From: an uncultured Myxococcales bacterium
GTDB lineage: Bacteria; Myxococcota_A; Polyangia; Fen-1088
Direction of reading: 5' to 3'
DNA: 64,000 bases
Assembly: GCA_964589215.1 (NCBI GenBank)
Contig: CAZPUH010000492.1
Location: 10,221 to 74,220 of the forward strand
The position numbers and the translations under genes were made by a program. The notes below the pieces were generated by a model that worked only from the letters and a program-made list of their open reading frames with translations, did no database searches and was not told the DNA's origin. Positions 12,193 to 22,426 of the stretch are shown in pieces. Positions within the stretch are counted from its first letter, which is position 1. Every line of letters starts with the position of its first letter.

Positions 12193-12717
12193 TTACGTCG
12201 GCTGCTGACAGACCTGCGAAGCCGGACAGTGCCCCGGCCGGCAACCGCCCAGACATTCGCGGCAGGAACAGTGAACGCCGTCGCCCGGCGGGCAGCGCTC
12301 GTCGTGACACGCCTGACCAGCATGCCAGTGCAGGTTGTCGCCGGTATCGATCTCGTCGTCCGGCAGCGTCCACAGACTCAACTTCCCCCGCACCGGCTTC
12401 GAGCTCGCCGGCCTGACGTCCGCCAGCTGCCATCCGAACGGACCGACAAAGTGGATGTTGTTCGCATCGGTCACGACCCCCACGACGCGAACGGTGCAGA
12501 CGATGACGCCGCGCGGGAAGTCCTTTCGGTCGAACTTCTGACCGGTCAGCTTCTCGACGCGCGCGGCTCCTTCAGCGTCCCAGCCCTGTCCAGCGTGAAT
12601 CGCGAAGCGCGTGCCGTCCGCAATGGCCCGCGGCGGAGGATAGCTCCGGTTCTCGAACGCCTTCACGCCGCGCGCGATGAGCGTCGCCCAGGGCTGTTTG
12701 ACTGTCAGAACTCTCAC
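12193..12717 (-). CDS. ASCH domain protein with Cys-rich C-terminus
   Basis: VRVLTVKQPWATLIARGVKAFENR. GTGA overlap with the upstream stop. Confidence 0.6.
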   Translation of the reverse strand: MRVLTVKQPWATLIARGVKAFENRSYPPPRAIADGTRFAIHAGQGWDAEGAARVEKLTGQKFDRKDFPRGVIVCTVRVVGVVTDANNIHFVGPFGWQLADVRPASSKPVRGKLSLWTLPDDEIDTGDNLHWHAGQACHDERCPPGDGVHCSCRECLGGCRPGHCPASQVCQQPT

Positions 12718-13040
12718 TGGCGCACCGCCCAGCGCACGAATGATGAGAACGACGCGCGCCGCTCGGCTTCCGGAGTCTTCTCGGGGAACCAAGCGGCCAC
12801 TTCGATCTCGCGTCCGAACGGGGCGCAGATCGCGACCGCTCGCACCTCGCCAGTCGGTCGGTAGAACGGCCCGACCGCGTGCGGCCCCCGCCTGACCTCG
12901 GCCTCAGCCTCGTCAAGCGCCTGCTCGCGCGTCGCGTTTCCGGGCACGTGCAGGATGCGCGTGCCGCCCACCCATGCCTCGCCGATCCAACTGGCCGCCG
13001 ACCGGTACGCGCGCAGATCGAATCCGCCAGACCACTTCAT
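12714..13040 (-). CDS. hypothetical protein
   Basis: 108 aa, MKWSGGFDLRAYRS... ATGA overlap. Confidence 0.55.
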   Translation of the reverse strand: MKWSGGFDLRAYRSAASWIGEAWVGGTRILHVPGNATREQALDEAEAEVRRGPHAVGPFYRPTGEVRAVAICAPFGREIEVAAWFPEKTPEAERRASFSSFVRWAVRQ

Positions 13041-13228: not shown

Positions 13229-13746
13229 GCTGCACCCCCGACCGATTCACGGGTGTCGCACGGCGCGCTGGCGGCGTTGCCGCGCGCATGACCGGCGCAG
13301 AGACAGCCCATCGACGCGGCGCACGGCGGGATCGCGCGCTCCGGCACGCGCGCGACGTACTTCGATCGCGACCGGAACGACACGATCGCGGTCAGCGACG
13401 GCCGCGCGGACGGGGCTGCAACGGGCGCAGCCTGCGCCGGTTTGACGATCGCCGGCGGCGGAGACAGCCGGCGCGCCGGACCGGCCTTGAGTCCGAACAT
13501 GATGGCCAGGTCGTCGTACGTCACGATCTCCGAGCCGGTTCGGTGCACGACGCGGAAACTGGCCCCCTTGAACAGCTTCTGGTCCGACCACTTCCGGACG
13601 ATGCGCGTGGCCTTCGCGGTATCGTTCGCGTCGGCGTTCACCGACATCTCGAACGTTCCGAGCTTGCAGACAACGCGCGTGACGGTCTCTGGGATGTTCA
13701 GCACGGGACGGCGTTCCTTGGCCGGTCTCCAATTCAGTCGCGACAT
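13225..13746 (-). CDS. hypothetical protein
   Basis: ATG 13746 has AGAGG 7 nt upstream (track start is GTG 13752). Confidence 0.55.
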   Translation of the reverse strand: MSRLNWRPAKERRPVLNIPETVTRVVCKLGTFEMSVNADANDTAKATRIVRKWSDQKLFKGASFRVVHRTGSEIVTYDDLAIMFGLKAGPARRLSPPPAIVKPAQAAPVAAPSARPSLTAIVSFRSRSKYVARVPERAIPPCAASMGCLCAGHARGNAASAPCDTRESVGGAA

Positions 13747-13862
13747 GGACACACCTCTGACGTTGAAGTTGCCGCGCGCGTCGTGCGCGCGGCTGGAGTC
13801 GAGCTACATGGCTTCGTGGGCTCCGTGCGGGCCCCGACCGGAGTCAGGGCCCGAGGCGGAAA

Positions 13863-14906
13863 CTACGAAGCGAGGAACGTCTGGGCGGCCGCCGCCAGCG
13901 TCCGGTCGCTGACGTCGCCGAACCACGCGTTGCTGAGGCGCGTGTCGTTGTCGTTGCCGCGCTGCCAGGTCAGATACTCCGTCGCCGCGTTGTAGGCGGC
14001 CCAGGCCGTGCCGCGAACGCCGGGGGCATCGTTGCCGCGACCGGACTCGAACAGCTGGGAGACCGTCTCGAACACGCGCGATTCGCGCTCCTTGGTCGTC
14101 GTGAGCGTCGAGCCGGCCGAGACGAAGTCACGCGACATGAGCGCGTCGAAGCTGTCGCCCTCGACGGCCGACTGAGCGGCCGCGATCGCCGCGTCGCGCT
14201 TCGCCTTGACGCGCCGGAACACGCGGTCGACGAAGGTCCGGAGCGAAGCCTCGGTGACGTTGACACTGGCCAGTGCGCGGAACACCTCGGCCGCTTTCTC
14301 GAAGTCGTGGTCAACGCGATCGATCGTCTCTTGCACGAGCTTCAGTGCGTCGCCGCTCTTCGCGGTGTGCCGGATCTTGATCGTCGCGGTGCGACGGTCG
14401 GCGATCGACGCGCTCAGCGTGTTCTGGCAGACGACGCGAATCGGAGTCAGACCGACGTGCAGGGCAAGCGAGCCGTCGTGACCGTTCGCGACCAGCAGGT
14501 ACTTGGCGACGCGGTCACCAGCCTTCGGAACGATGACGGAGTCCTCGCGAGCGATCTTCGCGAGCATCCAGACGCGCGCGCCCTTGCGAAGAGAACCGGC
14601 CGTCTCGATGCTCACGGCGCGTTGCTCGACGAACGGCGCGAAGAACTGAAACGCGTCGGCGTTCTGGACCGGACGGTAACCGCAACCGACCGTGCCGAGC
14701 ACGCGGTTATCCGAGCTCCGGATCGTCGCGTAGCGGTCGACCGCGGTGCCGTCCGCCAGCTGCAGCTGTTCGAGCCGGACCGACCAGTCGAGACCGGCGA
14801 GCTTGAGCGCCTCGGCGATCGACTCCGGCGCGGTCTGCAAAGCAGTGCCGAGACCGTGCCAGGGGGTCTCGCCGACAAACATCATGTTCTCGATCTCGTG
14901 TGCCAT
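13863..14906 (-). CDS. DUF932 / phage-plasmid TIGR03299-like protein
   Basis: The N-terminus MAHEIENMMFVGETPWHGLG is characteristic of the family. 347 aa. GAGGAG SD. Confidence 0.75.
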   Translation of the reverse strand: MAHEIENMMFVGETPWHGLGTALQTAPESIAEALKLAGLDWSVRLEQLQLADGTAVDRYATIRSSDNRVLGTVGCGYRPVQNADAFQFFAPFVEQRAVSIETAGSLRKGARVWMLAKIAREDSVIVPKAGDRVAKYLLVANGHDGSLALHVGLTPIRVVCQNTLSASIADRRTATIKIRHTAKSGDALKLVQETIDRVDHDFEKAAEVFRALASVNVTEASLRTFVDRVFRRVKAKRDAAIAAAQSAVEGDSFDALMSRDFVSAGSTLTTTKERESRVFETVSQLFESGRGNDAPGVRGTAWAAYNAATEYLTWQRGNDNDTRLSNAWFGDVSDRTLAAAAQTFLAS

Positions 14907-14972
14907 TTGACGTCTCCTCGGTTCGGTGGCGGTGGGGTTCCGGCTCTTCGTTTCGTGCCGGCTACACGAGAC

Positions 14973-15000
14973 AGTCTAGCTTCTCCGTAATTGTTGTAAA
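14973..15000 (-). promoter_or_regulatory. class III sigma70-like promoter TTTACA-N16-TAGACT
   Basis: AT-rich island. Shares ATTTACAACAaTTACGGA with the copies at 24027 and 49710. An approximately 65-nt leader runs to the SD of the DUF932 gene. Confidence 0.6.
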
Positions 15001-15040
15001 TGTCTTTTCCCCGTCAGCCAGGGAATGGTGACGCCGGGCG

Positions 15041-15415
15041 CTACCAGCTGGCTAAGTCCGCAATACGCGCGGGGATAGCCACCGTCAATCCGGCTGGCTG
15101 CGGCCGGCATTCGCGCATCTGCAGCATTTCAATGAGCTCGGCCAGCGGCACGTTCCGGACGCCGAGCGGCCGGTTACCGTGGTAGAGAACCGCTTCCGGT
15201 CGCCGCAGCGCCGCGATCCCGTTTTCGATTGCTTTCGGTGACGTGACCGTCCACCAGCCGACGATGACCAACAGGTCGCAGCCGTCGACCAGCCGCAGGA
15301 AAAATTCCTTTTCGCGGTCGCCGAGACCGACGGCATCGAAGTCGACGCACCAGCGCAGGCACGGTGCCTGATCCATCAGCGACAGCATCAGCCCCGTCCC
15401 GCAAGCGACCAGCAC
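15041..15415 (-). CDS. hypothetical protein
   Basis: GTG 15415 is the first in-frame start after the upstream stop. Alternative ATGs at 15388 and 15376. Confidence 0.5.
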   Translation of the reverse strand: MLVACGTGLMLSLMDQAPCLRWCVDFDAVGLGDREKEFFLRLVDGCDLLVIVGWWTVTSPKAIENGIAALRRPEAVLYHGNRPLGVRNVPLAELIEMLQMRECRPQPAGLTVAIPARIADLASW

Positions 15416-15495
15416 GCCGGAGCTTCCGCGGCGCCCGTAGTCGACGATCGGGACGTCCGCGATCCGCGCTGCGGTGCCCGGATCGATCCAACGAC

Positions 15496-16647
15496 CTACG
15501 TGGCCGGCATCTCGGCGCAGGTCTCGAGTAGCTCCTGCGCCGCCAGCGCGGGCATCGCCGGACCCACGTACTCGAAGCTGGCCGTCATCCGGAGCGCGGC
15601 CCGCGTGCCCTTCATGCGCTGCCGCAGATCCGCCGTTCCGCCACCCGTCGGGTTCAGGGACGGCGCGCGCCGCAGGACGTAGTTCTTGTTCTTGAGATTC
15701 GCCGCGATCTCCGCCGGGTGGGCCGTGTTGCAAAACGCCCTGTATCCTAACCCGACCCACATCGCCGACGTGAACTCCCGCAGCGCGGCGCCGATGCCGA
15801 CGCCCTGAAAGTCGGGCAGGCACACCGTGCGGTGCCCGCGCCGGATCTTCCGCTCGTCACGCGTGCGTCCGACGAACGGCAGCCACGAGTGCCAGGCGAC
15901 CGGCTGACCGCGCCAGAAGGCGACGAAGCACACCGCCGCGGCGCTGTGGGCGCCGGTCAGATAGTGATGCGGCTTGAAGAGCCCCCACGCGGAATGATGG
16001 ACGCGGTTGATCGTGAGCTCGATGGGCGGTCGCCGTCGAACCGACCTCCATGTGAAGCGCCGCTCAGCCGGACGGTAAACCCAATCCGGTTGAAGCCAGC
16101 GTTCCACGTCGTCGTGACAGGTCACGGCGACCAGCTTCTGGTTGCGGCGGCGCACGGTCTTCGCCAGAGCGGCGCTCCCGATCTGCGCCACCGTGCGGTC
16201 GACCACCGAGGTGAACTCGTCGATCACGGCCAGCTCCGGAAGCTCCGCCAGAAGGCGCGCCAGCGACACACGGAACTGCTCACCGTTCGACAGAACGTGA
16301 AAGGGACGCACCCACGCCGGCGGCGAGCTGAAACCCACCGAAGACATCAGCGCGGTCACGTCCTTGATCGACATCGCGGCGGGGAAGGCGTCGAGGACGC
16401 TGCGGTCCTTCGGCCAGCGCATCTCGCGTCCCACCAGCTTTGGCCAAAAGTGGCGCGCCACGCTCGACTTGCCGCAGCCGCTCGGCCCCGTGATCAGCCC
16501 GATGTTCCAGGACTTCTTTTCGATCGGCAGGTCGGCCTCTAGCACCACCTCCGAGCGCTCCGCCGCGGGCACGTCGAAGATCCCTGACATCTGCTGGACC
16601 CGCGGCGACACGATGATCGGCGCGCTCAGCTTGATCGTCGCCTTCAT
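15496..16647 (-). CDS. ABC-type ATPase fused to a GNAT-like domain
   Basis: Walker A GPSGCGKSS, signature LSNGEQFR, Walker B LAVIDEFTS. The C-terminal half has HHYL... and LPDFQGVGIG (acyl-CoA-binding-type motif). Confidence 0.65.
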   Translation of the reverse strand: MKATIKLSAPIIVSPRVQQMSGIFDVPAAERSEVVLEADLPIEKKSWNIGLITGPSGCGKSSVARHFWPKLVGREMRWPKDRSVLDAFPAAMSIKDVTALMSSVGFSSPPAWVRPFHVLSNGEQFRVSLARLLAELPELAVIDEFTSVVDRTVAQIGSAALAKTVRRRNQKLVAVTCHDDVERWLQPDWVYRPAERRFTWRSVRRRPPIELTINRVHHSAWGLFKPHHYLTGAHSAAAVCFVAFWRGQPVAWHSWLPFVGRTRDERKIRRGHRTVCLPDFQGVGIGAALREFTSAMWVGLGYRAFCNTAHPAEIAANLKNKNYVLRRAPSLNPTGGGTADLRQRMKGTRAALRMTASFEYVGPAMPALAAQELLETCAEMPAT

Positions 16648-17261
16648 CAGGTCACGATCGCCCGGGTCTTCAGCCCCATCGCCTGGAACCGCTTGAGCAG
16701 CTGCACCTGCTGCTTTTCTCCCTTGCACTCGACCACGATCGAGTAGGTCGACTTGATCTCCGGGATCGCCGGCTCTCCCACCTTTGCCAGGAAGCTGACC
16801 AGCTCCTTCTCGCGCACGCCTGTGCCCACCAGATCGCCGTCCAGCTCGGCTAAAATCTTCCCCATCGCGGCGTTGTCGTACCCGCCGATCTCGCCGATCC
16901 GCTGGGTCAGGACGTACTTCTTCAGCTGGCGCAGGTTCTTGAACGACATCCCGCGCATCGTCCAGACGAACCACTCGCCATCCTTGTCCAGCACGCGCGC
17001 TGGCGGTGGCTCGCCTGCCTCCTTCATCGCCGCCAGCTCCTCGACCCGCCCGTGCCCGGCGAACAGGAAGCCGCTTTTTTCGTCGATGCCAGGCGTCTCC
17101 ACGGCGCCGTGTTCGCGGTAGCTGTCGCCGATCAGATCCAGCGCGTGCTTCTTCGGATTCCACGGCGCGCGCCGCTTGAGGAGCTCGGTCAGCGCCACGC
17201 GCTCGAGGCGAGGTTCGCCAACCGGTTCGATCTTCGCCGCCTTCTTCTTCGCGGCCGCCAT
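16647..17261 (-). CDS. ParB-like nuclease domain protein
   Basis: LTELLKRRAPWNPKKH...FAGHGRVEE resembles ParB/Srx N-terminal motifs. Confidence 0.5.
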   Translation of the reverse strand: MAAAKKKAAKIEPVGEPRLERVALTELLKRRAPWNPKKHALDLIGDSYREHGAVETPGIDEKSGFLFAGHGRVEELAAMKEAGEPPPARVLDKDGEWFVWTMRGMSFKNLRQLKKYVLTQRIGEIGGYDNAAMGKILAELDGDLVGTGVREKELVSFLAKVGEPAIPEIKSTYSIVVECKGEKQQVQLLKRFQAMGLKTRAIVT

Positions 17262-17674
17262 CAGGCTTCGCCGATTTCGTACGCGTGCAGCTCCTCGCCG
17301 TCCGGCAGCACCACCAGGGTGGCCGGGTGGGGGTGCACGAGGTTGCCCAGGATCTGGCCGACCTGCTGCAGCCAGCCCTTTTCGGCCGCGTCGACCGACT
17401 TGCGGTGGATCGTGAAGATGACCCCCTTGCGGTCGCCGCCCAGGTTCACATCGATCCGCTTGACCGGCAGCGCGTCGCCGGCGATCGCCTCGACATCGAC
17501 CGGCGCCACTTCGACCACCCGCACGTGCTTGGTCGGCCGGTCGGCGTCCTTCGCGCGCTGTTCACAGACTGTGCAGCCATTCTTCACGGTGCGCGTGGGC
17601 TTGCCCAGGGTGGGGCAGCGACATTGGGCGATCACGCGCCCGCAGGAACAAATGACCGTCGCGTGTTCGTGCAT
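17261..17674 (-). CDS. hypothetical Cys-rich protein
   Basis: 137 aa, MHEHATVICSCGRVIAQCRC... A class I motif lies upstream. Confidence 0.6.
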   Translation of the reverse strand: MHEHATVICSCGRVIAQCRCPTLGKPTRTVKNGCTVCEQRAKDADRPTKHVRVVEVAPVDVEAIAGDALPVKRIDVNLGGDRKGVIFTIHRKSVDAAEKGWLQQVGQILGNLVHPHPATLVVLPDGEELHAYEIGEA

Positions 17675-17682
17675 CTGCCCCG

Positions 17683-17693
17683 GATACTACGCG
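17683..17693 (-). promoter_or_regulatory. class I promoter-like motif CGCGTAGTATC
   Basis: Exact 11-mer. TAGTAT ends 9 nt before ATG 17674. Confidence 0.6.
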
Positions 17694-17700
17694 CGGTCGC

Positions 17701-18453
17701 CTACCGGCGGGTGAAGTTCCGGCGCAGCGGCACCCCGCCCCCCTTAGGTGACCACTTCGCCAGCGCATCGCGACTAAACCACCACGCCATCACGCCGTCG
17801 CTCGTGGCGAAGACGGGGTAGTTCTTCACCTCCTCCTTGAACCGGCACCAGTGGCACGGGCAGGTCGACTCGTGCCCCTCCCATTCGCCGCCCGGAAAGA
17901 TCCAGGCGCCGTTGTTCATTTCGACCTCGAGCACCGGCAGGCCGACGTCCGGATCCGCCTTGTTCGAACCGGTCGTGAAGGACTCGACCTTCGGCCAGTA
18001 GGGCAGGTCGGCCTCCTTCACCCAATCGACCAGCGCCTCCTGGTATCCGTTGTTCTCGACCTGAATCCACTGCGGACCCAGCTCCTGATCGACGATGCCG
18101 ATCTGGCGTGCGGTCTCGGGCGAGCTCCAGGCGCCGAACCGGACATCCAGCAGCCCGCGCCGGTTGTTCGCCATCAGCCCCACGGTGACGATCGCCACGC
18201 CGGGCCGGCGCTTGCCGGACAGGTCGACCCCCGTGTAACAGAGCGGCTTGCGGGCCCGGAGCTCGCCGGCCGTCAGGCCGTGCTGGATGCATTTCTCGAA
18301 GCTGGGGAACTTCAGGTCGCCCGGCGCGACCGCCTGCATCAGGTAGCCCTTTTGGAAGGTCGCCATGTCGATCATGGCGTCCTGGAGCTTCTGCTTTCCG
18401 TGCTTCAACTCCCAGATCGGAAGAGACGGCAGCCGGATCGAGTGGTTCGGCAC
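17701..18453 (-). CDS. terL: terminase large subunit, nuclease (C-terminal) half
   Basis: RNase-H-like terminase nuclease pattern: YTGVDLSGKRRPGVAIVTV, IQVENNGYQEALVDWV, FTTGSNKADPDVGLPVLEVEM, TSDGVMAWWFSRDA. There is no ATPase domain in this ORF. Confidence 0.7.
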   Translation of the reverse strand: MPNHSIRLPSLPIWELKHGKQKLQDAMIDMATFQKGYLMQAVAPGDLKFPSFEKCIQHGLTAGELRARKPLCYTGVDLSGKRRPGVAIVTVGLMANNRRGLLDVRFGAWSSPETARQIGIVDQELGPQWIQVENNGYQEALVDWVKEADLPYWPKVESFTTGSNKADPDVGLPVLEVEMNNGAWIFPGGEWEGHESTCPCHWCRFKEEVKNYPVFATSDGVMAWWFSRDALAKWSPKGGGVPLRRNFTRR

Positions 18454-18456
18454 CGG

Positions 18457-19956
18457 CTACCCCGTCGTGAACGCGGGCGGCATCGGTGCCAAGGAATCGG
18501 CCAGCGCAATCGGCGGCACCACCGCGCCCGCCACGCCCGCGGGGACCGCCAGCGGCGAGACCGGCAGCAGCAATGGCGGGACCCGCGCCTCCACGACGCC
18601 CCACGCCACGTTGCGCCACCACGCGGCAACGTAGGCATCCTTTCTGAGCCCGTAGTCGGGCATCCAGGCGTGCTCGGCAGCGTCCAGGGCGACGATTACA
18701 GGCGCGTTCGCCGGCGCCCCGCTGTCATCCCCCTCGAGGACCATGTTCCGCAGCCTGCCGCCCCGGCCATCGCGAACCGCGAGCACCCAGCTGGCGGCCG
18801 CGCGCGCCGCCTGGCGGAAGTCCGCCGCCCAGGCGTCGACCGACCCGAAGGCTTCGACCGCCGCGGCCGTGAACGCCGGGCCAGGTCCGGCGGCGCCCGC
18901 GCCGCGCGCCAGCCCCTCGAAGTAGAGTTCGTGCAGGACGACCGCGTTGTGGACGGCCGGCAGGCGCCGGCGGGCGGCATCCGCGGGGCTGGGCCCCGCC
19001 TCCCGGCCCAGGAATTCGCCCACGGTGAAGTCCAGCGCAGTGAACGGCACTCGGCGGCCCACCCGTTTGATCGGCGCGGGTCCGTAGGCCATCCCCTGGC
19101 CCACCAGCATGTCCTCAACCGCCAGGAGCTTGGCCAGCGCGGCGGGCCGGTCGGCGTAGGTCTCCCGCCACCGCGAGCCGGGGTCCAGCCAGCAGGCGAA
19201 CGTCTCCGCCCAGTCCTCGTCGGGGTGCTTCTGGCCGTAGTGCGCCAACGGCGCGCTGGCGTTCTGCGCGATGTAGGACACGTAGGCATCGCTGGCGGCC
19301 GGGTCGGGCGTGAAGTCGTCCTGGTAGGGCGCCGCGAAGTTCCCGAAGGTCTCCCCCCACTTGATCCGCTGGTACAGCAGGTAGGCGTAGCCCAGGGCGT
19401 GTCCGAGCTCGTGACGCAGGATGCGCAGGACGTCGTCGACCGAGTACCGCAGGAAGTTGTCGTTCACCAGCGCCCAAAGGGCGTCGCTCGCCAGGTACCA
19501 GGGCAGGTTGATCGAGACCGCCTGATCGGCCGTCCAGAAGTCGGAGTCGCCCACGTACCAGGACGGCCGCCAGGTGATGCCGCGATCCTGCAGCTCCCCC
19601 TCCACCTGGGCGATGGCTTCGGCCAGCTTTCCGGTCGGCTCGAGCAACGGCAGGTCCCGCACCGGGGTGACCAGCAGCTGGTGGGCTTCCGCCGCTGGCA
19701 GCCCGCCGGTTGACCGCGCGCTGGCGCCAGCCACCGCGTCGAGCTCGGCCATCTCAACGACGTAGCGCCGATAGAGCTCCAGATGGTCGGCTAGCACCCG
19801 GTCGGAGATCCCGACCAGACCGCCCGTCAGGAGCGCCGTGAAATCACGCGGCGCGGCCGGTGCCGGCGCCTGCTTTTCCTCGGCGGCCCAGCGGCGCGCC
19901 ATCGCGGGGTGTGTCGCCCACATCCATCTTCGTTGCTTGGCGCTCTGCCATGGCAT
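18457..19956 (-). CDS. zinc metallopeptidase-like (HELGH) domain fused to a Fe/Mn-SOD-like domain
   Basis: RHELGHALGY. C-terminal FGSVDAWAADF...ASWVLAV...LDAAEHAWMPDYGLRKDAYVAAWWRNVAWGVV parallels the SOD pattern FGS.D..F..GSGW.WL..D.WEHAYY..R..Y...W.vvNW. Confidence 0.6.
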   Translation of the reverse strand: MPWQSAKQRRWMWATHPAMARRWAAEEKQAPAPAAPRDFTALLTGGLVGISDRVLADHLELYRRYVVEMAELDAVAGASARSTGGLPAAEAHQLLVTPVRDLPLLEPTGKLAEAIAQVEGELQDRGITWRPSWYVGDSDFWTADQAVSINLPWYLASDALWALVNDNFLRYSVDDVLRILRHELGHALGYAYLLYQRIKWGETFGNFAAPYQDDFTPDPAASDAYVSYIAQNASAPLAHYGQKHPDEDWAETFACWLDPGSRWRETYADRPAALAKLLAVEDMLVGQGMAYGPAPIKRVGRRVPFTALDFTVGEFLGREAGPSPADAARRRLPAVHNAVVLHELYFEGLARGAGAAGPGPAFTAAAVEAFGSVDAWAADFRQAARAAASWVLAVRDGRGGRLRNMVLEGDDSGAPANAPVIVALDAAEHAWMPDYGLRKDAYVAAWWRNVAWGVVEARVPPLLLPVSPLAVPAGVAGAVVPPIALADSLAPMPPAFTTG

Positions 19957-19965
19957 GCGCCCCAG

Positions 19966-19976
19966 GATACTACCGT
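19966..19976 (-). promoter_or_regulatory. class I motif variant (ACGGTAGTATC)
   Basis: Two mismatches in the GC-rich extension. TAGTAT ends 10 nt before ATG 19956. Confidence 0.45.
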
Positions 19977-20194
19977 CGTGTCGCCCGCCGTTGAAGCCGG
20001 TCGCGCTGGCCGATGACCAGACACTCCGGACAGGTCACCATCGACAGCTCCACCGTCAACGGCGCGGCCGGAGACCAATCCGCACCGCACCGCGCCCGGA
20101 AGTTCGGCCCCAGCAGGTGCATCACGCGCGCTGGCCTGTGGTCCGGCTTTTCCCTGCGGCCGAACAGGCGCCGCGCCCAGCTGAACAAGCCCAT
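19970..20194 (-). CDS. hypothetical protein
   Basis: 74 aa. A class I motif lies 6 nt upstream. Confidence 0.5.
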   Translation of the reverse strand: MGLFSWARRLFGRREKPDHRPARVMHLLGPNFRARCGADWSPAAPLTVELSMVTCPECLVIGQRDRLQRRATRR

Positions 20195-20199
20195 GCCCA

Positions 20200-20210
20200 G
20201 ATACTACGCG
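20200..20210 (-). promoter_or_regulatory. class I promoter-like motif CGCGTAGTATC
   Basis: Exact 11-mer. TAGTAT ends 6 nt before ATG 20194. Confidence 0.6.
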
Positions 20211-21463: not shown

Positions 21464-21474
21464 GATACTACGCG
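21464..21474 (-). promoter_or_regulatory. class I promoter-like motif CGCGTAGTATC
   Basis: Exact 11-mer. TAGTAT ends 7 nt before ATG 21457. Its TAG is the stop codon of 21468..22223. Confidence 0.6.
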
Positions 21475-22223
21475 GCGAGCTTCGGGTACGGCAGGCTCTT
21501 CGGCAGACAGCGGCGCAAGCTGCGGTCGAGAGCCCAGGCGTATTTGAGGTTTCCCGGGTGGCGCACCGGTCGCGTCAGGCGGTCGATGTCGCCGAGTTCG
21601 CCAGTCCCCCCGTAGCCGCGCAGCAGGCGAGAGACGTACTCGTGCCCGCGCTGCCGGTGCACCAGCTTCTGAATCGCCCGCCTCGGCAACACGCGCCCGT
21701 CCGGCAGCAAGCGCACGATCTCAGCCTTGCTCCGGCCGAGATAGACGCCATTCGTGGCCTGGTACACCGTGCCGACGTGGCCCGGGTGCACGAGCTCGCC
21801 CACGGCTGTCAGACGCGGCATGGGGTCCGAGAACGACACGATCCCCGCGACCTCGCGCCGGAGTTCTTCGAAGCATCGCGCGATAAACCAGGACTCCCCG
21901 TTTGCCGGCACATCGTCGAGCAACACGAGCCGGCCGAGTTCGGTGGCCTCGGTCGCCTTGACCGGAAAGACCTTCGTCAGCGTGACGTCATTCACCGGAT
22001 GAGAGAACACCGCCACACCCACCAGCTGTCCCGCGCGATAGAGCCCGAACCGGAACCGCGCGGCCGGAAAGCTACCAGAGTAGTGATGCCGGATGACGAA
22101 CGCCTTGGGCGTGTCGTCGTCTTCGATGCGGCCCACCTCATAGCGCCGCGTTTCGATCGGCTCACCGGCCGGACGGTACGACCCGCGCCGATCGCGCCAG
22201 CGCTGATTTACCGGTGTAATCAC
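21468..22223 (-). CDS. GNAT-fold, Mom-like protein (putative base-modification enzyme)
   Basis: FVIRHHYSGSFP, LVGVAVFSHP, ELGRLVLLDDVPANGESWF, SFSDP...GHVGTVYQATNGVYLG. This recalls the Mom-family/GNAT pattern from memory and is not verified. GTGA overlap start at 22223. Confidence 0.45.
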   Translation of the reverse strand: MITPVNQRWRDRRGSYRPAGEPIETRRYEVGRIEDDDTPKAFVIRHHYSGSFPAARFRFGLYRAGQLVGVAVFSHPVNDVTLTKVFPVKATEATELGRLVLLDDVPANGESWFIARCFEELRREVAGIVSFSDPMPRLTAVGELVHPGHVGTVYQATNGVYLGRSKAEIVRLLPDGRVLPRRAIQKLVHRQRGHEYVSRLLRGYGGTGELGDIDRLTRPVRHPGNLKYAWALDRSLRRCLPKSLPYPKLAA

Positions 22224-22426
22224 GGCGGCGCGGCGGTCTCCGTACCGCACTCGCCGCAGATGAATACGATCCGGATCAGATCGAGCGCCATCGGCTTGCG
22301 GCAACGTGGACACGGGCGCGGCGCTGGCGCCTTCGGACGTCCAACCCAGCCGGAGGGCAGAACCGGCGGCACATCATCGAGCTCACGCAGCCCTTCGCAA
22401 TCGCTGCATTCTCCCGTCGCGCACAT
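22220..22426 (-). CDS. zinc-ribbon small protein
   Basis: CSDC...CPRC...CGEC Cys pairs. 68 aa. Confidence 0.55.
   Translation of the reverse strand: MCATGECSDCEGLRELDDVPPVLPSGWVGRPKAPAPRPCPRCRKPMALDLIRIVFICGECGTETAAPP

Follow-up and report, generated by a model that had tools for sequence, protein, structure and literature searches.

The subject of this report is a pair of adjacent genes at positions 15496..17261 of a 64-kb stretch of DNA (64,000 nucleotides of contig CAZPUH010000492.1, referred to as the window), which carries the genes of an uncultured phage. The pair encodes a ParB-like protein, P0002, and a fusion of an ABC ATPase and a GNAT acyltransferase, P0001. All genes around the pair lie on the minus strand. 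The two genes and their domains are the following:

16647..17261, minus strand: ParB-like partner P0002, 204 amino acids, stop-free, identified by PHROG matches and a family profile
16650..16748, minus strand: C-terminal beta-alpha-beta-like mini-domain of P0002 (YSIVVECKGEKQQVQLLKRFQAMGLKTRAIVT), delimited by conservation in the partner family
15496..16647, minus strand: ABC::GNAT fusion P0001, 383 amino acids, identified by a full-length match to phrog_11143
16042..16647, minus strand: ABC ATPase domain of P0001, residues 1-202, identified by Pfam ABC_tran, invariant motifs and Foldseek
15499..16041, minus strand: GNAT acyltransferase domain of P0001, residues 203-383, identified by a domain model, Foldseek and Pfam matches of the family

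At the junction of the two genes (...gtgaccTGATGaag...) the TGA stop of P0002 and the ATG start of P0001 have one base in common. The family consensus begins at the residue encoded by the ATG at 16647, which is therefore the correct start of P0001. A TGATG overlap likewise couples an open reading frame (ORF) of 137 amino acids (17261..17674) to the ParB-like gene. As these three genes are co-directional and joined by one-base stop/start overlaps, they are co-produced. An earlier interpretation made from the letters of the window (the sequence-only reading) had described two coupled genes with a TGATG junction; this description is correct, and all motifs quoted in it are in place.

P0001 is related over nearly its entire length to phrog_11143, a family listed with "unknown function": residues 5-364 align to profile positions 3-352 of 357 (E 5.4e-101). 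Public data hold at least 6260 homologues at E<=1e-10. Conservation was assessed in an alignment of 48 homologues with 54-79% identity. The N-terminal half carries the motifs GPSGCGKS (Walker A, residues 54-61), LSNGEQ (signature, residues 119-124) and IDEFTS (residues 142-147, with Walker B and the catalytic glutamate in IDEF), followed by the D-loop SVVD and the H-loop CHD. Invariant in the alignment are G54, S56, G57, G59 and K60 of Walker A, S120 and G122 of the signature, D143 and E144 of Walker B, D150 of the D-loop and H178 of the H-loop. Pfam ABC_tran matches P0001 with E 7.3e-8. Whole P0001 was modelled by AlphaFold2 with high scores (predicted local distance difference test, pLDDT, 90.3; predicted template modelling score, pTM, 0.83), and Foldseek matched this model to ABC nucleotide-binding domains (MalK, SufC, LptB and similar) with probability 1.00, TmcA (2zpa) appearing at rank 13. 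The ABC domain of P0001 retains the full catalytic motif set, in agreement with the sequence-only reading, which had called the nucleotide-binding domain complete. Identity as an ABC transporter was considered and rejected, since none of the neighbours examined in the window or in the annotated phage loci is annotated or matched as a permease. The neighbours in these are ParB-like, DUF932, ASCH, terminase and portal genes.

The C-terminal half of P0001 is a GNAT with an intact coenzyme A (CoA)-binding Q-x-x-G-x-G loop. P0001 alone scores below threshold against the GNAT models of Pfam (E 0.015-0.049); among 46 family members, Acetyltransf_7 matches 44 and Acetyltransf_1 matches 41. Residues 203-383, modelled separately (pLDDT 90.9), gave only GNATs among the top 50 Foldseek matches in the PDB, with TmcA 2zpa at ranks 13 and 19. 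A sequence-only PDB search with the GNAT profile gave marginal GNAT matches (best E 0.029), NAT10 being among the weak ones. A GNAT-like domain had been suspected here from the motifs HHYL (residues 227-230) and DFQGVGIG (residues 279-286), and the family matches and the structural search establish it. Q/R-x-x-G-x-G/A is the classical acyl-CoA pyrophosphate-binding motif of GNATs. In the corresponding loop of P0001, D279-F-Q281-G-V-G284-I-G286, the residues D279, Q281, G282 and G284 are invariant among the 48 homologues, and at least 90% of these keep G286. H228, Y229 and R273 of the GNAT domain are also invariant in the family. In phages of Bacillota, the ABC and GNAT halves are found in separate reading frames or ORFs (Lactococcus phage P335 orf24/orf25, L087:2953-4007; Streptococcus phage phiNIH1.1, L003).

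P0002 consists of an N-terminal ParB/Srx-type domain, a variable middle part and the C-terminal mini-domain. The N-terminal domain contains the motifs WNPKKH (residues 34-39) and AGHGR (residues 67-71), of which N35 and G69 are invariant in the partner family. P0002 alone has no Pfam match; in PHROGs it matches phrog_620 (ParB, 2.3e-10) and phrog_498 (2e-10). A profile built from 45 partner proteins matched Spo0J (5.8e-13), Noc (1.3e-11) and other ParB N-terminal domains in the PDB, and Pfam ParB_N is matched by 21 of the 45, so that the ParB/Srx-like character first read from the motifs is substantiated. The alignments of the profile to Noc span 185 positions, with low information past position ~100. 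The best-conserved block of the partner family is the mini-domain of ~35 residues (F.V.IEC..E..Q..LL.RL..EGL.CRAL), in which at least 90% of the partners share C179, E182, Q185, L189, G196 and A201. We propose that the mini-domain is a docking element for the ABC-GNAT enzyme. Support for docking comes from a three-domain fusion, from partners reduced to the mini-domain and from translational coupling. DNA binding is a putative role of the ParB-like partner, suggested by analogy.

Close relatives of P0001 were gathered from 80 viral and 80 genomic loci, and the partner was detected by a hidden Markov model (HMM) built from partner proteins. All 80 loci with upstream sequence (77 viral loci from IMG/VR and three annotated phages) have a ParB-like gene immediately 5' of the enzyme gene and on its strand; in the three IMG/VR loci lacking a ParB-like match the sequence begins at the enzyme gene. 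Of the 72 genomic loci with upstream sequence, 70 show the same arrangement, the two exceptions being truncated copies. Co-occurrence in related genomes, which the sequence-only reading had named as a check on its pairing of the genes, is thus near-universal within this clade. At the partner/enzyme junction, many of the related loci have stop/start overlaps of the ATGA/GTGA type; with the PHROG matches of P0001 and P0002, these show that the gene pair is no chance arrangement. In one viral genome (IMGVR_UViG_3300047160_019600, L052:763-2604) a single ORF of 613 amino acids comprises ParB, ABC and GNAT, with ~25 residues between the mini-domain and the ABC N-terminus. At the level of sequence, this three-domain fusion is Rosetta-stone evidence of partnership. 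Seven annotated phages encode a full ParB-like partner 5' of the enzyme, namely Gordonia/Rhodococcus phage Jace, Gordonia phage BiggityBass, Arthrobacter phage EastWest, Streptococcus phage phiNIH1.1, Lactococcus phage P335, Pasteurella phage Pmp13 and Leptospira phage LE4. Partners consisting of the mini-domain only (42-55 amino acids) are encoded upstream of ABC-GNAT in Burkholderia phage phiE255 and in Porphyromonas gingivalis phages. Gp28 of phiE255 (L002:4840-5004) matches the HMM of the C-terminal mini-domain with E 4e-7, and the 42-residue protein of Porphyromonas phage007a_Bg4 (L084:2876-3004) matches gp28 by BLASTP with 7e-10. The annotation of this Porphyromonas protein as an 'acr candidate' is doubtful, given its homology to the partner mini-domain.

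Carriers of the family are phages of Actinomycetota, Bacillota, Pseudomonadota, Bacteroidota, Spirochaetota and Planctomycetota. Among genomic relatives, those closest to the window copy (L098-L177) are prophages found overwhelmingly in metagenome-assembled genomes of Planctomycetota (Gemmataceae, Planctomycetaceae), several of them on megabase contigs. Judged by these relatives, the host of the phage in the window, which has 67% G+C, is probably a planctomycete. From sequence comparison, the window pair is an ordinary member of a widespread family that is experimentally uncharacterised.

A function for such proteins has been predicted before. Iyer et al. (Viruses 2021, PMC7824862), citing a paper of 2013 (Iyer, Zhang, Burroughs and Aravind, NAR), describe a family of ABC ATPase + GNAT proteins predicted to acylate a DNA nucleobase and give Tenacibaculum phage pT24 as an example (PMC7824862). 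The pT24 protein is a homologue of P0001, which places P0001 in the same family. As far as the system of Iyer et al. 2013 is summarised in PMC7824862, its architecture and family (PHROG 11143) are those of P0001. In SEA-PHAGES, proteins of the PHROG 11143 type are named 'ATP binding cassette-like protein'. Nothing essential distinguishes P0001 from other PHROG 11143 members; the window copy belongs to an uncultured phage and has its nearest relatives in Planctomycetota prophages. Compared with other PHROG 11143 loci it is unusually placed, after a split-off TerL nuclease gene, and has a Mom-like gene in the same genome.

We propose, with a probability of about 0.5, that the pair is an ATP- and acyl-CoA-dependent module that acylates the DNA bases of the phage itself, protects against restriction and uses the ParB-like protein as an adaptor. 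The module would act on the phage's own double-stranded DNA (dsDNA), after replication and before packaging. The C-terminal mini-domain of P0002 would dock on ABC::GNAT, and the ParB/Srx domain would help to engage or open the dsDNA, the precedents being the ParB proteins that activate phage thymine dioxygenases, and DpdB, the partner of DpdA. Binding of ATP would then shut the head-to-tail dimer of ABC domains, gripping the nucleic acid and exposing a base, and the GNAT domain would move an acyl group from acyl-CoA onto an exocyclic amine. The acyl mark would blunt host restriction of the phage DNA, and the nearby ASCH protein may read or trim the mark. Since the window phage has no genes for donor synthesis, its donor is probably acetyl-CoA. 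The proposal is supported by the family identity, the active-looking enzyme, the near-universal ParB partnership and the phrog_498-type ParB domain. Further support comes from neighbours with donor chemistry, the com-mom position of the cassette in phiE255, the Mom-like H/Y/R motif and TmcA as an architectural analogue. The sequence-only reading had offered DNA-end recognition for packaging, a modification machine or an anti-defence module; a modification machine, which would itself be anti-defence, is the best supported of these and packaging the least. More tentatively, and at somewhat less than even odds, the pair would install an undescribed class of DNA modification, the ATP-dependent N-acylation of exocyclic amines in dsDNA (e.g. 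N4-acetylcytosine, N6-acyladenine), with an acyl group that varies among lineages, the mini-domain as universal adaptor and ASCH proteins as readers or erasers. The lineage-specific group would be acetyl in the window phage, beta-alanyl where PanD and a CoA-transferase are encoded, and a formylated derivative where a formyltransferase is encoded.

The genes around the pair bear on this proposal. In the window they are the following:

12193..12792, minus strand: ASCH-domain protein, four genes 3' of the pair (Pfam ASCH 1.1e-4; phrog_3193 2e-34)
13863-14906: DUF932 gene, downstream of the pair
15041..15448, minus strand: conserved ORF of ~135 amino acids, 3' of the ABC::GNAT gene, with homologues in ~10 close viral loci
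17261..17674, minus strand: ORF of 137 amino acids that opens the coupled run; its N-terminal segment is Cys-rich and zinc-ribbon-like (CSCG...CRC...CTVC)
17701..18453: TerL nuclease-half-like gene (phrog_38 positions 486-697), just upstream of the 137-residue ORF
21468..22313, minus strand: Mom-like protein gene (PF25680 2.1e-26)

Enzymes that could handle acyl donors recur beside the module. A Formyl_trans_N gene lies 3' of the enzyme in Gordonia (BiggityBass), Burkholderia (phiE255) and Porphyromonas phages; in BiggityBass it is gp3 (L086:1823-2473), which is annotated 'tRNA-methyltransferase' and matches Pfam Formyl_trans_N with 7e-10. In Jace, gp87-gp88 (L001:6110-7221), directly 3' of the enzyme, are a PanD-type aspartate decarboxylase (2e-33) and a protein like CoA-transferase family III (2.2e-8), which together could yield beta-alanyl-CoA as an acyl donor. 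These neighbours suggest acyl-donor chemistry. ASCH-like genes are found in 25 of 84 related loci, in addition to the window copy. ASCH proteins are N4-acylcytosine amidohydrolases (PMC6972931) and erase N4-acetylcytosine (ac4C) from tRNA (bioRxiv 10.64898/2026.02.27.708502). The window ASCH protein is a candidate for reading or erasing an N-acylated base, and its tie to the module is putative.

Mom of phage Mu is a GNAT-fold protein that transfers glycine from Gly-tRNA to adenine N6 in dsDNA (PMC13219725), and mutations of its residues H58, Y59 and R111 cripple its activity (PMC13219725). The Mom-like protein of the window is a true member of the Mom family, keeps H58, Y59, R111, S124 and D149 of Mu Mom, reported to be required for momylation, and is, judged by these residues, probably an active Mom. 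A kinship in motif between this protein and the GNAT domain of P0001 had been noted in the sequence-only reading. It holds for the shared HHY motif and beta4 arginine and fails for membership in the Mom family. Pfam Mom (PF25680) is matched by one of 46 ABC-GNAT members (E 0.055), and the profile-profile comparison of the ABC-GNAT family with the window Mom-like protein gave a probability of 1.4%. Assignment of the P0001 GNAT domain to the Mom family was rejected, because both profile-profile tests, this one and that against a Mom alignment given below, were non-significant (probabilities 0.5-1.4%). The non-significant alignment is topologically consistent, with H228-Y229 and R273 of P0001 opposite H58-Y59 and R111 (the beta4 arginine) of Mu Mom. 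This HHY/Arg parallel weakly favours a nucleobase as acceptor. P0001 resembles Mu Mom in the GNAT fold, in HHY with the beta4 arginine and, through the phiE255 cassette, in the com-mom position. It differs from Mu Mom in the CoA-binding loop, the fused ATPase and the ParB-type partner, and the window phage has a separate, apparently intact Mom-like gene. Because the CoA-binding loop is kept, unlike in Mom, the donor of P0001 should be an acyl-CoA and not an aminoacyl-tRNA.

Two further groups of systems couple a ParB domain to DNA modification. The 5mYOX thymine dioxygenases, which modify DNA after replication, require on dsDNA a ParB homologue that is encoded adjacent to them and has an N-domain of the nucleotide-binding type and a C-terminal domain, with no obvious DNA-binding domain (O'Toole et al., PNAS 2026, PMC13229309), and DpdB, a ParB-like ATPase, is needed for DpdA (PMC12839542). 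P0002 is laid out like the 5mYOX activator, with an N-terminal and a C-terminal domain. Unlike in 5mYOX, the catalytic partner of P0002 is an ABC-ATPase::GNAT and not an iron- and 2-oxoglutarate-dependent dioxygenase, and its role as activator is putative. P0002 also matches the N-terminal 150 residues of phage fusions of ParB_N with a DNA methyltransferase (phrog_498) as well as it matches stand-alone ParB PHROGs. Both share the logic of a ParB domain coupled to a catalytic domain that modifies DNA bases. In contrast to the phrog_498 fusions, the catalytic module here is a predicted ATP-driven acyltransferase on a separate, translationally coupled chain and not an S-adenosylmethionine-dependent methyltransferase.

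Several results weigh against DNA-base acylation by the pair. The DNA target rests on context and on the earlier computational prediction, and no biochemical or genetic test of the ABC ATPase + GNAT family was found in the searchable literature. The ABC domain is akin to transporter-type nucleotide-binding domains and not to the DNA-clamping Rad50, MutS or UvrA. A comparison by hhalign of the ABC-GNAT profile with an alignment of 26 Mom sequences was non-significant (probability 0.5%, E 0.12). On the side of the partner, a helix-turn-helix family is matched by none of the 45 partner proteins, and GERRYR of Spo0J aligns with GHGR, or G(H/N)G(R/T), of the family, which leaves one arginine of the GERRxR patch. 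Because this canonical patch is reduced to GHGR, we do not class P0002 as a chromosome-segregation ParB CTPase. Four divergent lineages (Tenacibaculum phage pT24, Nonlabens phage P12024S, Vibrio phage vB_VmeM-32, Aeromonas phage PX29) have no recognisable partner. Lastly, RNA is the substrate both of TmcA, the ATPase+GNAT analogue that has been characterised, and of the characterised ASCH enzymes.

This last point leads to an alternative that we regard as unlikely, in which the enzyme acylates RNA, most likely tRNA, in the manner of TmcA/NAT10: the ATPase would remodel the RNA, the GNAT would acetylate a base, and the product would tune translation or shield tRNAs from anticodon nucleases. TmcA (2zpa) is among the best structural matches of both the full-length and the GNAT model, NAT10 is among the weak profile matches, the GNAT is of the classical acetyl-CoA type, and the ASCH proteins of the related loci and the window belong to a group that erases tRNA ac4C (bioRxiv 10.64898/2026.02.27.708502; PMC6972931). 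TmcA/NAT10 enzymes also combine a P-loop ATPase with a GNAT, which, with acetyl-CoA as donor and hydrolysis of ATP, places an acetyl group on a nucleobase's exocyclic amine. However, the ATPase of P0001 is of the ABC type and not the helicase-like module of TmcA, DUF1726 and a tRNA-binding domain are absent, and the GNAT is not of the GNAT_acetyltr_2 type, which matches one of 46 members with E 0.1. TmcA is therefore a structural analogue of P0001 only, and P0001 is not a member of the TmcA/NAT10 family. The partner and the genomic context of P0001, unlike those of TmcA/NAT10, point to DNA: the constant partner is of the ParB/Srx type, with relatives that occur as fusions with DNA methyltransferases or as activators of enzymes that modify DNA, and the module occupies sites at which phages carry genes for DNA modification, among them, in a Mu-like phage, the site of Mom. 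The apparent tRNA methyltransferase of BiggityBass, moreover, is really a formyltransferase domain. A rather improbable alternative gives the enzyme a protein or small-molecule target, such as a host factor of defence or transcription, a nucleoid protein on DNA undergoing packaging or a defence signalling nucleotide, and a role in anti-defence or host takeover. The closest GNAT structures are acetyltransferases of protein N-termini and of small molecules, for example Naa60, RimI and phosphinothricin acetyltransferase. Rac is an example of a phage GNAT that acetylates host RNA polymerase (PMC7824862), and an ABC domain that looks like the transporter type and unlike a DNA clamp would fit as well. 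Yet Foldseek likeness among GNATs is uninformative on the substrate, and a protein or small-molecule target leaves unexplained the obligatory ParB-like partner and its fusion, the recurrent formyltransferase or PanD + CoA-transferase neighbours and the Mom-equivalent position.

Position in the genome is the main argument for a role in DNA packaging, in which the pair and the terminase would together recognise or process the ends of the genome, with a non-catalytic or regulatory role for the GNAT. The pair lies directly upstream of terS/terL in most viral loci, TerL following in 33 of them at a median of 567 bp downstream, and the same order is found in LE4, Pmp13, P335 and phiNIH1.1; in the window it has the TerL nuclease-half gene on one side and the portal gene on the other. 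The cassette is, however, away from the terminase in other phages: in the Mu-like phiE255 it follows the tail-fibre genes, which is the com-mom position in phage Mu, in Nonlabens P12024S primase and helicase flank it, and T4-like jumbo phages have it far from the terminase. A packaging role also sits poorly with the invariant catalytic motifs of both enzymatic domains, with the recruitment of acyl-donor enzymes beside the module and with the fact that most tailed phages package without it. The location just after the TerL nuclease half, to which the sequence-only reading had drawn attention, is real but unique to the window phage, being seen in none of 160 related loci. We consider a packaging function very improbable; acylation of DNA bases by the pair remains our preferred interpretation.

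The 137-residue ORF at the head of the coupled run has no homologues in the 160 related loci and no Pfam or PHROG match, and is, by these comparisons, specific to the phage lineage in the window rather than a conserved part of the module. A conserved tie of the pair to either the TerL nuclease half or this ORF was rejected, since neither recurs in the 160 related loci. On the other side of the pair, homologues of the ORF at 15041..15448 lie immediately 3' of ABC-GNAT in ~10 of the closest viral loci, often with an ATGA-type overlap with the enzyme stop. The window copy has no ATG, GTG or TTG near the expected start and reads ACGTAGG where relatives have the overlap. The ORF matches no Pfam or PHROG family; against the PDB it has a weak JAB/MPN likeness (E 0.2-1.3), and the catalytic His motif is absent (GW[FY]..T.P). 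It is a possible third component in the sub-clade of the window. A scan for promoters and terminators found nothing exceeding shuffled expectation and one promoter-like site ahead of the DUF932 gene. This is the sole sigma-70-like match in 13500-20200, at 14973-15000 on the minus strand, just 5' of the DUF932 gene, and is itself not above shuffled expectation. Its position suggests that the ParB/ABC-GNAT run may end before DUF932.

Beyond the prediction of Iyer et al., the present analysis contributes the minimal C-terminal adaptor, the three-domain fusion, the HHY/Arg parallel with Mom and a likely Planctomycetota host, as well as the PanD + CoA-transferase and formyltransferase neighbours as evidence of variable acyl donors. 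The database labels given to the family (ABC transporter, partition protein) are mislabels. The window copy itself adds little past another member, and it shows the module alongside Mom-like and methyltransferase-type genes in one phage. If the Mom-like protein of the window is active, this phage carries two different GNAT-fold candidate DNA modifiers. If the predicted activity of the pair is true, N-acylation from acyl-CoA would join the known chemistries of phage DNA hypermodification, and the partner would provide another case, the second, in which a ParB-type protein activates an enzyme that modifies DNA. Both restriction evasion and tools for sequencing and biotechnology could then be affected.

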